This document shows positions 7,125-23,053 of a DNA stretch of 46,202 nucleotides, piece by piece; within the stretch, counting starts at the first letter, position 1; each line of letters begins with the position of its first letter. The notes under the pieces were generated by a model. The model saw only the letters and a list, made by a program, of their open reading frames with translations. It had not been told where the DNA came from and did not search any database. Source of the stretch: a phage; NCBI GenBank assembly GCA_025043315.1, contig GCA_025043315.1_4324.1; one strand, written 5' to 3'. The position numbers were made by a program, and so were the translations under genes.

Positions 7125-7155
7125 CTCTATAACTCCTCTCGTTTAAGTTGAATCC

Positions 7156-7184
7156 ATCATATACCGACTTACACATGTAGTCAA
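7156..7184 (-). promoter_or_regulatory. canonical sigma70-type promoter TTGACT-N17-TATGAT
   Basis: -35 at 7179-7184 and -10 at 7156-7161 on minus strand; leader AAACGAGAGGAG resembles palindromic-promoter leaders. Confidence 0.5.
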
Positions 7185-7204
7185 GTGTAATTTTTGGTAA
7201 CTTT

Positions 7205-7540
7205 TGGGGGCGTTACGCGAAATGGCACGCTAGCTAAGCTATAGCTCAATGTAGTTTCGTGTCGTGCGTGTAACGAGGTAAATTGGCTAGATGGCTCCAT
7301 AATGGCTAAATCTCACATAAAATAGCAACAATGTATTCTGATGGGAAAAAACATATAGATATCGCCGGGACCCCCGTTACACGACTTACATACAATAATA
7401 ATAATAATAATAATAATAATAGAAAGAAGATATATATATATATTAAGCACTTATAGCGTAAGTCAGGGCGTATCTGCGCGTAACTAGCGTAACGATAGGC
7501 GCTGGCTTACATCGCGCTACGTCGGTTACGCGTCAGCTCA
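7205..7540. promoter_or_regulatory. regulatory region A: GTTACG-type repeated boxes, (AAT)9 at 7394-7421, (AT)7 at 7430-7443; homologous to region 25515-25850
   Basis: shared blocks AAATGGCA, AGCTATAGCTCAATGTA, AGGGCGTAT, ACATCG-N-TCGGTTACG with region B. Confidence 0.55.
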
Positions 7541-7726
7541 AAATGGCTCAGCCAGAATAAAAATCAACTTGTATGGTAGTCAACCCAGCTTTCATTCACT
7601 AACTCCCCACTTCATTTCACTTTTCGCAACAATCAAAAACATCATTGCATCAGAAGCAATATTGCTGTATGCGCAATAATCATGTGAATCATTGCAATAT
7701 CTGCAACAATCCATAAATCTGACGAA

Positions 7727-7770
7727 TAGCACTTTTTGCTAAAGACATGTTAAGGTGGTGACGCTATAGT
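7727..7770 (+). promoter_or_regulatory. palindromic promoter module (TAGCACTTTTTGCTA 7727-7741; TATAGT 7765-7770)
   Basis: 23-bp spacer; leader TAGCTCATCAACAACGGGGAG before HNH gene. Confidence 0.55.
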
Positions 7771-7791
7771 TAGCTCATCAACAACGGGGAG

Positions 7792-8340
7792 ATGGATATG
7801 AAGATTGATAAAGATGAATTGCGTCACGAAAGCGCACTGATTGGTCGAGTTAGTGACCCTGAAATTTGGAATTCGATATTTGAATATGATGGGGAAAACC
7901 TAATAAGAAAAGCAACAACATCAAGTAGAGCGAGGGCTGGAGATGTTGTGGGGTGCCTTGATAGGGGTTACTTAACTGTCAGGTTCAATAAAAAGCTATA
8001 CTTTGTTCATAGGATCGTATGGGAAATGCATAATGGACCCATTCCTGATGGAATGTATATTGATCACATAAATCACAAGAGAGATGATAACGGATTGGTC
8101 AATTTAAGGCTTGTAACAAGAATTGAAAATCAAAGAAACATGTCAATTAGCAAAAGGAATAGTAGCGGCTTTGTTGGTGTCTCATGGAGTAAGGTGCACA
8201 ATAAGTGGGAGGTTAGAATAGGAGTGGGGAATGGCACGAAAGACATGTATTTAGGAAGATATGATGCCATTGATGAAGCAGTTGCAGTTAGAAAGAAAGC
8301 GGAGTTAGATATTGGGTATCACAAAAATCACGGAGAATAG
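7792..8340 (+). CDS. HNH homing endonuclease with AP2-like DNA-binding domain
   Basis: HNH-type motif IDHINHKRDDNGLVNLRLVTRIENQRN, then SSGFVGVSW...KWEVRI; paralog of 18683..19213. Confidence 0.75.
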   Translation: MDMKIDKDELRHESALIGRVSDPEIWNSIFEYDGENLIRKATTSSRARAGDVVGCLDRGYLTVRFNKKLYFVHRIVWEMHNGPIPDGMYIDHINHKRDDNGLVNLRLVTRIENQRNMSISKRNSSGFVGVSWSKVHNKWEVRIGVGNGTKDMYLGRYDAIDEAVAVRKKAELDIGYHKNHGE

Positions 8341-18682: not shown

Positions 18683-19213
18683 GTGTATATGAAAGTTAAT
18701 GATTTTGTTTATGTTGACGATGAATTTAAATTAAGATGGAAGAGTAGAGGTGTTGAATTCTTCAAAACAGAGAGGTCATCAAAGATCTGGAATAGTAGGT
18801 TTGCAAACAAGGAATGTGGATACATTAGGGATGACGGCTATCTTTCTTTTGAGTTCAATGGTCGAGCATACAGAAATCACAGGGTGATATGGGAAATTGT
18901 AACTGGTAATGAAATAGATGATAACATGGAGATTGACCATATAGATCATAATACAACAAACAACAATATTGAAAACCTTAGACTTGTTGACAGGAAAGAG
19001 AATTGCAAAAACCAATCCATGATGCCCCATAACTCGAGTGGCTTCACAGGTGTTCACTGGTGGTCAGCAAGAAACAAATGGAGAGCCCGCATCGAATGTG
19101 ATGGCAGAGTGAAAACAAAAACATTTGAAGACTTTAATGACGCTGTCGAGTGGAGAAAAGAAATGAACATAAATCTTGGCTTTCACAAGAATCATGGAGA
19201 TAAGAAAAAATGA
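18683..19213 (+). CDS. HNH homing endonuclease with AP2-like domain (second copy)
   Basis: IDHIDHNTTNNNIENLRLVDRKENCKN, SSGFTGVHW...KWRARI. Confidence 0.75.
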   Translation: MYMKVNDFVYVDDEFKLRWKSRGVEFFKTERSSKIWNSRFANKECGYIRDDGYLSFEFNGRAYRNHRVIWEIVTGNEIDDNMEIDHIDHNTTNNNIENLRLVDRKENCKNQSMMPHNSSGFTGVHWWSARNKWRARIECDGRVKTKTFEDFNDAVEWRKEMNINLGFHKNHGDKKK

Positions 19214-20133
19214 AATTTTATGATAAGAAAGAGGTATTGCCAAGAATGATGGGGATGTGGAAGGATGCCCTCATAAACATTTGTGATGCGCCTGAGAGCT
19301 TCTTTAATGGCAAGCACCAGCCATGCCTATATTGTGGAGGTCGGGATCGGGCTAGATGGACTGATAACCTATCTATAAAAGGTGACGGCGGAAATATATG
19401 CAATCAGTGCGGAAACGACACTGGAATAGGGTTGATGATGAGGCTTACTGGAATGAACTACAGTGAGGCCATAAATGTATTAGGTGACTGGCTCAACCTT
19501 ATACCTGCAGAGGTTATATCAAAAGCAAACAAAAGAGCATCTCGTACATCACCATACAAAATGGGCGCCCAGATTGATCACGAAAGATGCTTAGAGATAA
19601 TGGAAAGGACGGAAAGAGTAGAATCAACTCCGCTCAGTACATATGAGGGTATCTATAGCGAGTTTGGTTTTGATGTTGGCAGGACGAAATCAGGCGAATT
19701 AATACACGCAGTACCGTGCTTTATGGCTTATAATGATGGCATATCAGATGATATGTGCAATGTGATGTTTATCAATGAAGAGGGAGATGTTAGTTATGCT
19801 GCAAAAGATTATACTCGCCAGTCTGTGGCTGTTATTGGTTCCTTTAAGGATGATGAGTACGCTTACCTGGTCGATAATTGGGTTGATGGTGTTCGCGTTC
19901 ATCTTGCTACTGGCAACCGCAGCGTGCTTGTTTGCCACTCCAGCTACAACATGGAAATGGTTGCTTATGCGCTTAAAAAATACAAGTTACGCGTCGCTTG
20001 TACTATCCACGATTTTGATTTACTTGCCGTTGCTGACGATCGCAATCTTGATGTTGTAATGCCAAATGATGATAATTTTTTCAAGTCAGGAATAAGAAAG
20101 AGAATATACAAGGCAAGCGAATTACTAAACTAA
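19210..20133 (+). CDS. putative DNA primase with N-terminal zinc ribbon
   Basis: C-x2-C...C-x2-C (CLYCGG...CNQCGN); replication-module position. Confidence 0.5.
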   Translation: MKFYDKKEVLPRMMGMWKDALINICDAPESFFNGKHQPCLYCGGRDRARWTDNLSIKGDGGNICNQCGNDTGIGLMMRLTGMNYSEAINVLGDWLNLIPAEVISKANKRASRTSPYKMGAQIDHERCLEIMERTERVESTPLSTYEGIYSEFGFDVGRTKSGELIHAVPCFMAYNDGISDDMCNVMFINEEGDVSYAAKDYTRQSVAVIGSFKDDEYAYLVDNWVDGVRVHLATGNRSVLVCHSSYNMEMVAYALKKYKLRVACTIHDFDLLAVADDRNLDVVMPNDDNFFKSGIRKRIYKASELLN

Positions 20134-20156
20134 CCTCCTTCGGGAGGTTTTTTTAT
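20133..20156 (+). terminator. rho-independent terminator (CCTCC-TTCG-GGAGG plus T7)
   Basis: hairpin 20135-20148 then T-tract. Confidence 0.7.
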
Positions 20157-20196: not shown

Positions 20197-20221
20197 AACA
20201 ACAATATAGGAATTGATTATT

Positions 20222-22579
20222 ATGGCAATTTATGACTTAGGAACCGCATCGCTAGCCGCGAATGGCGAAGTGACTGGCGTAGGAACAACATGGAAGGCAC
20301 CACTTACACTGATCAGAGTTGGTGCAACCATCGTATTTAAAACTGAACCAGTACAGATTTACACCATCTCAGAAATCATCAGCGATACGCGGATTAATGT
20401 TTACAACCCTAATTCTGAAACTGTTCCTGCTGGCACTGGTTACGCGATTCTTGCGCACGACGGGATTACCGTCCAGGGTTTAGCTCAGGATGTTGCCGAA
20501 ACTTTGCGCTACTATCAGTCAAAAGAGACCTCAATTGAGTCATTAATTGAAATAATTGAAAACTCAGATATTGATGTTATTGATGGCAAAATTCAGGAAA
20601 TGCAGCAAATTCTAAGTAGCACAATGGCAGCCGAAGGATCAGCAAAATCCAGTAGTGATAGCGCTCTTGAATACAGTAATAAATCAATAAGCAGCGCTAA
20701 TGAGTCAAAGTCTGCAAGGGATGAGGCTGTAGCCGCTAAGAATTCGACAATTGAAGCGATTAATAACGCAGGAGATGCAGGTACACTAGTGACATTATCT
20801 GGTTCTAATGGGGCATCACTTATTGGAACCACTGATGGTTCAACCATTCAGGACGAGATTTCGAGTCTTAAAGCCAATGGGGCTTCAATTATTCGAACCA
20901 CTGATGGTTCAACCATTCAGGACGAGATTTCGAGTCTTAAAGCCAATGGGGCTTCAATTATTCGAACCACTGATGGTTCAACCATTCAGGACGAGATTTC
21001 GAGTCTTAAAGCCAATGCTGGAAATCTTAGGGCAGAACTAGCTTCTGATAATGGATTTAATATCGTCAATTACAAGAGGCCTGGTGTTAATGGTTCTGTA
21101 ATTAATTCGCTATCTACCAGGTACGCTTACACTTTAGACGCCGTGGCTGATTTCGGAGCTGACCCAACAGGTTCAACAGATAGTTACGAAGCATTGCAGG
21201 CGTGGGCGAACGCATGTGTTGCTGGGCCATGGGCTACAGGAACTATTAACGGAATATTCAGGATCAGTAAAACACTTGAGTTCGCCAATATCGCTGGATT
21301 GACCATTATTGCTAACTGTTACATATACCCAACTTTCGAATCTGGCGATGCTGTGATTCGCTATCGCAATGGCCAGGGTCTTCGTGTTTACGGTCGCTTT
21401 GAAGCGTCAGGTCAGAATAAGATAGGTATCCGTGCGGCTCATAAGATTTACACCGATAATGATAATGGTTTTAGCTTTTCCTACCTATATGGTGCTTGCG
21501 CTAGTGATGCTCTTACTGGTTTCGAGTTTGGTGACGCGGCTTATCCTAGCGGTCTAGTTTCCGAAATGTCACTGATTGGTGGTTACTCAGTGGGGTGCCC
21601 ATGCGCGGTTCGAGCTATAGGTTCCCAGTGCTATATTAACTTGGATGGATTCGATGCTGTGTCTGGAGGGGTGGGTGATCTTAGTTCCGTTACACAATAC
21701 ACCATTCATGTAAAGGGGGCTAATGTTAAAGTTCGTGGCGGTGAGATTCAGCACAATAATAATATCTACGGAGCTAGCATTCTCGTAGAGCCTCAAACTG
21801 ATCCTCTTTTCAATAATCAGTTCGGAAGCATTGAGGTTAATGCTTGCCATGTTGAGACAGCAGCGCAGCTGTGTTTTATTGCGAATCTTGATGGTGTGGA
21901 ATCACCTAAGAGTGATTTTACTAATATTTCATTTAAAGGACTGCGTGGTTATCACTCCCAGGATAACGGACCATTTATTAGCACGCACTCAACTGCCATT
22001 GAAAGTAACTATTCTGGAACCATTAGTTGGGCTAATATGTCTGGAATGCACTGCGGAGTCACCAGAACACAGCCTAACATACAGGCTGGGAGTCTATCTA
22101 GAGTGTACTACGACGAGACATATGGTGCTGGGTTCCGTAAAGGATTACAGTCTGTATCTGGCGGTATATTGCACTTTAGTCGTAGGCCTGTATGTATAGC
22201 TCAGAACACAGGTGGACAGACTCTTACTGCAGCCACTGACAAAATAATTTGGGGGGGGCTGGTTTCAACTGACGACTCTTACCGCTGGAACGCACAGTAC
22301 AGCGGGGGTACATTTACAGTGCCAGCGGGTGGTTTAAAGGATGTTCACGTTCATGCTGTAGCAAGGATTGACACAAATGTTCAGCTTAGTATGACTGTTT
22401 TCGTAGACGGCGGCGCACAAAGTTTGGCTATACCCAGCGCGGGAGCGGCTGAGCTTAATGCATTCCTTGGTGATTTAGATGCGGGTAGAGAAATTGAGAT
22501 CAGAGCTAGTGTAAGTCCAGGTTCGGCTATTTTGAATGGAGGTTATTTTGAGAGGATGACTATTACTGCATCAAGGTAG
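20222..22579 (+). CDS. tail fibre / tailspike protein with three tandem 23-aa repeats
   Basis: 785 aa from ATG at 20222 (track 788 aa from TTG 20213); repeats GASxIxTTDGSTIQDEISSLKAN x3; C-terminal Gly/Asn-rich region suggestive of a beta-helix. Confidence 0.7.
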   Translation: MAIYDLGTASLAANGEVTGVGTTWKAPLTLIRVGATIVFKTEPVQIYTISEIISDTRINVYNPNSETVPAGTGYAILAHDGITVQGLAQDVAETLRYYQSKETSIESLIEIIENSDIDVIDGKIQEMQQILSSTMAAEGSAKSSSDSALEYSNKSISSANESKSARDEAVAAKNSTIEAINNAGDAGTLVTLSGSNGASLIGTTDGSTIQDEISSLKANGASIIRTTDGSTIQDEISSLKANGASIIRTTDGSTIQDEISSLKANAGNLRAELASDNGFNIVNYKRPGVNGSVINSLSTRYAYTLDAVADFGADPTGSTDSYEALQAWANACVAGPWATGTINGIFRISKTLEFANIAGLTIIANCYIYPTFESGDAVIRYRNGQGLRVYGRFEASGQNKIGIRAAHKIYTDNDNGFSFSYLYGACASDALTGFEFGDAAYPSGLVSEMSLIGGYSVGCPCAVRAIGSQCYINLDGFDAVSGGVGDLSSVTQYTIHVKGANVKVRGGEIQHNNNIYGASILVEPQTDPLFNNQFGSIEVNACHVETAAQLCFIANLDGVESPKSDFTNISFKGLRGYHSQDNGPFISTHSTAIESNYSGTISWANMSGMHCGVTRTQPNIQAGSLSRVYYDETYGAGFRKGLQSVSGGILHFSRRPVCIAQNTGGQTLTAATDKIIWGGLVSTDDSYRWNAQYSGGTFTVPAGGLKDVHVHAVARIDTNVQLSMTVFVDGGAQSLAIPSAGAAELNAFLGDLDAGREIEIRASVSPGSAILNGGYFERMTITASR
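20811..21017 (+). repeat. 3 x 69-bp in-frame tandem repeat inside tail fibre gene
   Basis: units 2 and 3 identical, unit 1 differs at a few positions. Confidence 0.9.
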
Positions 22580-22603: not shown

Positions 22604-22635
22604 TAAAAAAAGCCCCGAAAGGGGCTTTATCTTTT
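22604..22635. terminator. bidirectional rho-independent terminator (AGCCCC-GAAA-GGGGCT)
   Basis: hairpin 22611-22626 flanked by A-run and T-run; between convergent tail fibre and ssb genes. Confidence 0.7.
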
Positions 22636-22636
22636 A

Positions 22637-23053
22637 TTAGAATGGGATATCGTCGTTGAATTGACTTTGCTGCTGAGGTTTTTGTTGCTGAGTTTTCTGT
22701 TGTTGTCTTTGCTGCTGCTGTTGTGGCACTGAATCACCACGCTGACTAAACTCAAGTCGAGGGTTATTCATATTAACTGTAACGTAAGTATTGCCATCTT
22801 TATCGCGGACATCAACCGACAAACTCTCGGCGCTTAGGCTGACAACTTTACCTTCCTGAAATGCTTCGTTATACCAATCCAGCATCGACTCTTTGGCGAA
22901 AAGTACTGCGCGGTAGTTTGTGTACTTAGTTTGACCATCTTTATCCTTGTATCGCTCGCTCAAATCAACTGCAAACATCTTCCAGTTACCATTTTCGTTT
23001 GCGCCTTCTTTAGTGAACGGAGCGCGGCGAATCTGACCAGTAATTACGTGCAT
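22637..23053 (-). CDS. ssb: single-stranded DNA-binding protein
   Basis: Gln-rich linker (QQQQQRQQQKTQQQKPQQQSQ) and acidic tip FNDDIPF as in bacterial SSBs. Confidence 0.75.
   Translation of the reverse strand: MHVITGQIRRAPFTKEGANENGNWKMFAVDLSERYKDKDGQTKYTNYRAVLFAKESMLDWYNEAFQEGKVVSLSAESLSVDVRDKDGNTYVTVNMNNPRLEFSQRGDSVPQQQQQRQQQKTQQQKPQQQSQFNDDIPF

Follow-up and report, generated by a model that had tools for sequence, protein, structure and literature searches.

A young in-frame 69-bp repeat array with a probably stepwise history in the predicted stalk-head linker of a T1-like phage tail fibre

The fibre gene and its product

The window analysed here, which is the whole of the 46,202-nt phage contig GCA_025043315.1_4324.1, carries a lateral tail fibre or tailspike gene in which a 69-bp segment is repeated three times in tandem and in frame. 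The gene was delimited by the open reading frame (ORF) list, PHROG families and synteny with phage Sd1; the ATG at 20222 corresponds to the Sd1 start, and the ORF list gives a TTG at 20213, 3 codons upstream. The 785-residue product is identical to the database protein P0001 (HCL7432471.1), annotated as 'TPA: hypothetical protein [Escherichia coli]' (TPA, third-party annotation). A first-pass annotation, made from the letters of the sequence, had called this a tail fibre gene, and the assignment was confirmed by the N-terminal ~200 residues, which match tail-fibre PHROGs (phrog_24092 at E 2e-74 and ten others), and by the DNA of roughly the first 300 nt of the gene, which shares 85-92% identity with the fibre genes of ~30 T1-like phages, including Sd1 and Rtp.

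The gene order in the window is helicase (minus strand), regulator, primase, fibre, SSB-like (single-stranded DNA-binding protein; minus strand), Erf (minus strand) and exonuclease (minus strand), so that the fibre locus lies between primase/helicase replication genes and SSB/Erf/exonuclease recombination genes, the same arrangement as in Sd1 and in the related loci L005 and L007. The lateral fibres of Drexlerviridae were described in the BASEL study as conserved at the N-terminus and hypervariable in the remainder, with the O-antigen as the presumed target (PMC8594841). The conserved N-terminal anchor and the position of the locus are as in that description, which identifies the product as a Drexlerviridae (T1-like) lateral tail fibre. 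A Pfam search with the fibre protein returned no family, catalytic families included, and only sub-threshold noise. The features of the gene are as follows.

20222-22579, plus strand: lateral tail fibre/tailspike gene, 785 residues
20222-20470, plus strand: N-terminal virion-anchor domain, residues 1-83, conserved in Drexlerviridae lateral fibres
20471-20809, plus strand: predicted helical stalk, ending in the junction NAGDAGTLVTLSGSN
20810-20878, plus strand: repeat unit 1, codon-phased, GASLIGTTDGSTIQDEISSLKAN
20879-20947, plus strand: repeat unit 2, GASIIRTTDGSTIQDEISSLKAN
20948-21016, plus strand: repeat unit 3, GASIIRTTDGSTIQDEISSLKAN, the newest copy
21017-21052, plus strand: predicted helix continuation, AGNLRAELASDN
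21053-21124, plus strand: putative older, diverged element of GASLIG type, GFNIVNYKRPGVNGSVINSLSTRY, residues 278-301
21125-22576, plus strand: predicted tailspike head, residues 302-785, a right-handed beta-helix followed by a C-terminal beta-sandwich

Anchor, stalk and head

Residues 1-233 of the fibre are homologous to the Klebsiella depolymerases DpK2 (7LZJ) and Depo32 (7VYV/7VZ3) at E 2e-37, with the anchor domain aligning to residues 1-100 of 7LZJ/7VYV. AlphaFold2 (AF2) performed poorly on the anchor and predicted long helices for residues 84-183 of the stalk (H84-114 and H117-183), whose terminal junction motif NAGDAGTLVTLSGSN is common to most Drexlerviridae fibres. Beyond the array, AGNLRAELASDN would finish an ancestral 35-residue element as a helix continuation, and the AF2 helix H255-274 passes through it. 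Head modules of many phage families have the LRxELAS motif at their left edge and start with LRxELASxxG(F/A)(D/N)LIxYKxxGVxGSVxNxLSxRY, and LRxxLAS precedes the head in their homologues. Judged by sequence comparison, residues 278-301 are an older paralogous element of the GASLIG type that is native to the head module, since head homologues keep it as the part of this pattern from G(F/A)(D/N)LI onwards, for instance as GADLIGFKQDGVVGSVQSELSKRF in P0020.

The head itself was assigned from the AF2 monomer model (mean predicted local distance difference test score, pLDDT, of 78.5), in which the head exceeds a pLDDT of 90 and successive strands run through residues 338-580, and from a Foldseek search of the PDB, which returned the tailspikes Det7 gp208, CBA120 TSP4, HK620, Sf6, DpK2 and Depo32 at probability 1.00. 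It shares 48-54% amino acid identity with tail proteins of PhAPEC7 (Schitoviridae), Agtrevirus CECAV_050 and the O45 phages GA2A and Ro45lw. Because a beta-helix head is indicated by both AF2 and Foldseek, the so-called tail fibre is, on the model, a stalked tailspike, and the array (residues 197-265) lies within its stalk-head linker. The array had earlier been placed between the N-terminal anchor and a large C-terminal domain, and alignment, AF2 and Foldseek agree in putting it after the conserved anchor/stalk of the N-terminus and before the large head at the C-terminus; the accompanying suggestion that copy number would change the length of the fibre shaft is better worded as the length of the stalk-head linker, given the tailspike beta-helix at the C-terminus. 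When the linker region was searched by itself against PDB sequences, all matches were at chance level.

The head domain is also found as a stand-alone protein (57-76% identity) in P0004 and P0006, which comprise 524 residues with ~45 N-terminal residues and no stalk and are encoded on phage-sized contigs of ~44 kb. Across its homologues the head module occurs in several forms of attachment, namely stand-alone, on Tail_spike_N, on a P22 head-binding domain, on a T7 fibre N-terminus and on an N4-like gp66.

Anatomy of the 69-bp array

Tandem Repeats Finder (TRF) located the array at 20807-21017 with a period of 69, 3.1 copies, 97% matches and a score of 401, by far the strongest tandem repeat in the window, and a separate repeat search returned three 73-nt copies at 69-nt spacing. 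Translation agrees with both programs, as the array is in frame inside the 785-residue ORF with AATG at both of its edges, and the in-frame threefold 69-bp repetition announced in the first-pass annotation is thereby upheld. Its coordinates, given there as 20811-21017, required correction, as the codon-phased units occupy 20810-21016, one base to the left. Units 2 and 3 had been described as identical and unit 1 as differing at a few positions, and the counts are indeed 0/69 and 3 differences, the latter at positions 6 (A/T, synonymous), 10 (C/A, Leu>Ile) and 16 (G/C, Gly>Arg) of unit 1 versus units 2/3. All three fall within the first 16 nt of the unit, an end block with a P of ~0.012. The longest exact direct repeat is 123 nt long at an offset of 69 (20826-20948 = 20895-21017), which is beyond chance in 46 kb, and the head-to-tail arrangement of units with long exact identity is that of tandem repeats prone to slippage or unequal recombination.

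In the AF2 model each 23-residue unit forms a non-helical stretch of ~12 residues and a 10-residue helix (H209-218 and H232-241), and only the helix of the last unit runs on into AGNLRAELA (H255-274), which suggests that the 69-bp duplication cut the helix. The +4/+3 spacing of I209/I213/L216, continuing through residues 255-274 in unit 3, would fit a short coiled-coil segment, as read from low-pLDDT helices of a monomer model.

Copy number in relatives

The comparison of copy number in relatives that had been suggested as a check revealed 1, 2 or 3 units. Only one GASLIG element follows the same NAGDAGTLVTL junction in Sd1, P0037, P0038 and P0039, and most other Drexlerviridae fibres have no GASLIG element. 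Two copies were found in P0002, P0003, P0122 and P0124 and three in the window and P0123. The strict regular expression GASLIG...T[VI]Q, applied to the 120 best homologues, matched more than one copy only in P0001-P0003. P0002 (762 residues; DNA in L005 and L006, 95.2% identity across the gene) contains two units that differ at 8/69 nt (88% identical; 89% matches in TRF), and their longest exact shared run is 21 nt. P0003 (774 residues; DNA in L007) contains two elements at a 35-residue period with 62% nucleotide identity. In all relatives the number of nucleotides per unit, 69 or 105, is divisible by three. Four further proteins belong to the 90%-identity cluster of P0001.

P0121: 257 residues, partial; a head-domain fragment, with the array outside it
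P0122: 762 residues, 2 units; a third allelic background with 5 amino acid differences
P0123: 785 residues, ENA contig of 47,589 bp, 3 units as in the window; 8 amino acid differences from the window, all in the head
P0124: 762 residues, 2 units; same as P0123 at all 739 other residues

The 3-unit state is present on two allelic backgrounds and the 2-unit state likewise on two, a polymorphism of the kind expected if units are often gained and lost through slippage or unequal recombination. Exact-pattern scans with the unit-unit junction and the conserved DNA of the head start yielded nothing in IMG/VR, JGI metagenomes and GTDB genomes, nor did an exact-pattern scan of the RefSeq complete E. 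coli genomes, and a related-locus search in IMG/VR recovered Sd1 itself only.

Probable stepwise history of the array

The order of events was read from a table of variable sites that comprised the window units (W1-W3), the P0002 units (P2_1 and P2_2) and the outgroup P3_2. The derived states A10/C16/A37 at positions 10, 16 and 37 (Ile, Arg and Ile) are common to P2_2, W2 and W3, which indicates that unit 2 of the window is orthologous to unit 2 of P0002 and that the first duplication took place before the two lineages split. Positions 45, 54, 57 and 66 read C, G, T and C in W1-W3 versus T, A, C and T in P2_1, P2_2 and P3_2, and these four derived synonymous changes, present in all window units, point to concerted evolution. 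W1 combines the unit-1 states at positions 10 and 16 with the unit-2 state at position 37, which marks it as a chimera whose breakpoint lies within positions 17-36. The close likeness of unit 1 to units 2 and 3, previously taken as a sign of very recent duplication, is therefore genuine as an observation, but the four shared synonymous states and the chimeric unit 1 ascribe it to homogenisation rather than recency.

Recency does apply to the last copy. Had the third copy arisen at the time of the split between the window and P0002, the chance of 0/69 differences between W2 and W3 would be 0.002-0.03, which argues that this copy is very recent. The earlier claim of recent duplication thus holds for units 2 and 3 and fails for a single triplication, as the step from one unit to two predates the split from P0002. 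W2 and P2_2 differ at 6 positions, every one of them synonymous, indicating that the unit peptide is under purifying selection.

The probable explanation as a whole is a young, changing in-frame linker repeat with a stepwise history, consisting of an old duplication, homogenisation and a very recent extra copy. The comparisons show the anatomy, the sequence of events and the differences in copy number, whereas the molecular mechanism (slippage or recombination), the trimeric structure of the units and any effect on adsorption are inferred. As in Sd1, P0037, P0038 and P0039, the ancestor would have carried a single GASLIG element, of ~35 residues, composed of GASLIG, a short loop, T(V/I)Q and a ~20-residue helix ending in LRxELAS, a length suggested by the 35-residue period in P0003. 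In the first step a 69-bp sub-segment would have been duplicated, with a 4-nt AATG microhomology at the junction, before the window and P0002 lineages separated, and unit 2 would subsequently have acquired Leu>Ile, Gly>Arg and Val>Ile. The second step, in the window lineage, would be homogenisation by gene conversion or unequal exchange, which would have left four new synonymous states in all units and converted unit 1 into a unit-1/unit-2 chimera. In the third step slippage or unequal homologous recombination over the resulting 53-nt identical tract would have generated the third identical unit, and the reverse of this step would remove a unit, giving rise to the 2/3 polymorphism in alleles that are at least 99% identical.

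Several points weigh against this account. The order of conversion and expansion is ambiguous, because several multi-step paths give the same product, and the divergence of unit 1 in P0002 could stem partly from a small imported recombination patch instead of age. The units of P0122-P0124 were compared at the protein level only, and mis-assembly, given the 123-nt exact repeat, could have affected both the copy number of the window and the two units of P0122/P0124. The structural reading is weak, as it derives from an AF2 monomer with a pLDDT of 43-64 across the units; the low values are attributed to a presumably trimeric neck having been modelled as a monomer. Finally, any link from copy number to phenotype is inferential.

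Alternative explanations

The best-surviving alternative, which keeps a minor though real chance, holds that the first duplication is the scar of out-of-register recombination between two fibre genes during head grafting, each of which brought its own GASLIG element. The array does sit at a module junction, as DNA similarity to Sd1 ends at 20838, inside unit 1, which places a module boundary there, and the head homologues from Schitoviridae, Ackermannviridae, Autographiviridae and prophages all begin with LRxELAS and a GASLIG-type element. The two elements of P0003, at 62% nucleotide identity and a 35-residue period, have the look of different origins. The fibre gene also bears signs of horizontal exchange: in the comparison of window 20222-22579 with L005:10001-12289 and L007:10001-12325 its nucleotide identity amounts to 95% and 89%, respectively, versus ~89% and ~83% for the genome backbones, and its divergence from P0002 switches sharply within the N-terminus from ~9% in 20222-20491 to ~0.7% in 20492-20761, which together indicate a mosaic exchange in which distinct phage species have passed on the fibre allele along with its array. 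On the other hand, the P0002 units are 88% identical, share the same 69-bp register and have AATG at both array edges, features that an intragenic duplication fits at least equally well, and no donor gene with a GASIIR-type element was found in the homologue searches.

An assembly artefact, in which the true phage has fewer or more units and a short tandem repeat was mis-resolved, is unlikely. The contig comes from a third-party assembly of short-read type made from an E. coli isolate, the 123-nt exact repeat (offset 69) exceeds most assembly k-mers and comes near the length of short reads, and a difference in copy number alone between P0123 and P0124 is also expected from variable resolution of the repeat; in short-read assembly the 2-unit versions (P0122 and P0124) can arise by collapse. 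However, assemblers mostly collapse tandem repeats and seldom expand them, and the 3-unit state was recovered in two independent records, the NCBI TPA contig of 46,202 bp and the ENA contig of 47,589 bp, which differ at 8 residues elsewhere in the protein. In addition, the diverged 2-unit array of P0002, with its longest exact run of 21 nt, is unambiguous and no artefact, so that duplication at this site is real. A purely artefactual array appears unlikely because of these two lines of evidence, the independent 3-unit record and the diverged array of P0002. The refutation envisaged in the first-pass annotation, that reads would expose the triplication as an assembly artefact, is weakened by the second independent 3-unit assembly, P0123, and not eliminated by it.

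Still less probable is a single, very recent triplication of one 69-bp segment, after which unit 1 would have acquired three point mutations. It would agree with the identity of units 2 and 3 and with the mere 3 differences in unit 1, but the GASIIR variant of unit 2 is also present in P0002, whose own units differ at 8/69 nt, the differences of unit 1 are clustered in its first 16 nt, where it has the ancestral GASLIG states of Sd1 and P0003, and four derived synonymous states are common to all window units. A reading of the array as a DNA-level element in place of a coding repeat, be it a set of protein-binding iterons, a recombination site or an alternative-frame gene, is hardly credible, for although alternative frames are open (a 77-residue ORF at 20808-21041 on the plus strand and an 84-residue ORF at 20593-20847 on the minus strand), none of the 6 differences between W2 and P2_2 changes a residue in the fibre frame, the unit length is always divisible by three and the repeat contains no strong inverted repeats or hairpins.

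The two alternative-frame ORFs, of which the 77-residue one is itself a triple repeat (MVQPFRTRFRVLKPMG...), were considered as gene candidates and rejected as by-products of a stop-free repeated unit.

Possible function and significance

Under the stepwise account, each unit would add to every chain a non-helical segment of ~12 residues and a helix of ~10 residues, and the copy number would determine how long, and probably how flexible, the stalk-head hinge is, leaving the receptor-binding or enzymatic head untouched. An effect of copy number on linker length or reach is plausible, and adsorption may be affected. A more speculative and rather unlikely proposal is that the GASLIG element is a self-contained trimeric spacer bead, present as 1-3 young copies before one ancient copy, that is quickly and reversibly gained or lost and selected to tune the reach or flexibility of the head through O-antigen or capsule layers of differing thickness; if true, the array would act within a phage receptor-binding protein as a contingency locus that tunes length. 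The GASLIG element might also be a preferred crossover site for head swaps between phage families.

The 1-, 2- and 3-unit states, with a diverged and an identical pair among them, provide a natural series in which linker geometry would have been changed by duplication, conversion and re-duplication. Should host range or adsorption depend on copy number, the reach of tailspikes could be engineered simply by way of the 69-bp unit. As identical repeats can change during propagation, the array is a marker to watch in phage therapy stocks, and it also flags a site at which short-read phage assemblies may misreport gene length.

Neighbouring features and the phage genome

Two terminator-like hairpins flank the fibre gene, both from a consensus scan only, and promoter-like matches around the gene were not above the shuffle expectation.

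20132-20149, plus strand: terminator-like hairpin, after the primase gene and upstream of the fibre gene
22609-22628, both strands: terminator-like hairpin, bidirectional, separating the fibre gene from the convergent SSB-like gene

The SSB-like protein (22637-23053, minus strand), for which Pfam gave no match, has a Gln-rich low-complexity tail, QQQQQRQQQKTQQQKPQQQ, with a 15-bp imperfect tandem repeat at 22666-22702 (2.5 copies in TRF). About 1 kb upstream of the fibre gene, between a Cro-like regulator and the primase, a 176-residue ORF (18683-19213, plus strand) encodes an HNH_3 endonuclease (Pfam E 6.5e-16). This ORF is probably a mobile homing endonuclease, because it is absent from this position in Sd1, L005 and L007. 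A second HNH_3 ORF is located at 7792-8340, preceded by ~650 bp (7147-7791) devoid of ORFs of at least 50 residues, in which a perfect (AAT)9 microsatellite (7394-7421) is directly followed by an (AT)7 run; this region may be a regulatory, origin or packaging region and is another slippage-prone tract.

Although the TPA contig that the window makes up in full bears the label Escherichia coli, its sequence is the genome of a T1-like (Drexlerviridae) phage of virulent type, which suggests that the phage was carried along in the isolate culture. No exact terminal overlap was detected between the contig ends (1-46202). The closest deposited phages, vB_EcoS-12469II and its relatives, share only 87% identity over 72% of the first 25 kb, and on this account the phage probably belongs to an undescribed species.

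Comparison with known systems

In-frame tandem duplications that expand host range, generated via recombination between short repeats, are on record for gene 37 of phage T4, in the account of Tetart, Repoila, Monod & Krisch (1996, J Mol Biol 258:726) conveyed by PMC6957217 and PMC6365445. The window resembles this system in having a small in-frame tandem duplication in a fibre gene whose copy number varies between variants. The T4 duplications reportedly lie in the distal receptor-binding tip, are flanked by His-boxes and were selected for expanded host range. The array in the window is different from that of T4 gp37, as residues 197-265 are upstream of the head (~residue 300), far from the binding surface and outside a receptor-binding tip, and no His-box or histidine-rich motif was seen in or beside the 23-residue units on reading the translation, with no motif search having been run.

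Another parallel is Enterococcus phage EfV12-phi1, in which 1.8-kb tandem duplications of the tail fibre, upstream of the carbohydrate-binding part, emerged during experimental coevolution together with a gain in infectivity (PMC6365445, Wandro et al. 2019). Long reads from populations of that phage carried between 0 and at least 4 additional copies, and the repeat showed no internal sequence diversification, so that an effect on fibre geometry was presumed (PMC6365445). Both phages have an in-frame tandem duplication of variable copy number before the carbohydrate-binding part of the fibre gene, but the unit in EfV12-phi1 is 1.8 kb in the long fibre of a myovirus, in contrast to 69 bp in the lateral tailspike of a siphovirus in the window.

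With DpK2 and Depo32 the fibre shares a homologous anchor and stalk and the same succession of triple-helix stalk, linker and beta-helix head. DpK2, from Klebsiella phage RAD2, has an N-terminal triple-helical bundle, and this bundle and the linker beside a break in C3 symmetry were unresolved in cryo-electron microscopy (PMC8552709). In the alignment to the window protein the built model of DpK2 begins at the GASLIG-equivalent residues. By analogy with the unresolved bundle and linker next to the symmetry break and with a model that starts at the GASLIG equivalent, the array is probably situated at a hinge. DpK2 and Depo32 have a single GASLIG equivalent (PDGFDSIG...ALRNLKP) at the same junction, in contrast to the three copies of the window, and their heads are specific for the K2 capsule and unrelated in sequence to the head described here.

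Within the family, the gene corresponds to Sd1 gp17 and Rtp gp50, with which it shares the locus, the conserved N-terminus and the hypervariable remainder. Most Drexlerviridae fibres continue after NAGDAGTLVTLA into a different intermediate domain, and 2-3 tandem copies occur only in the clade of the window. In-frame tandem duplications of phage fibre genes are already established; what distinguishes the present array is the small size of its unit (23 residues) and its location in the predicted stalk-head linker instead of the binding domain.

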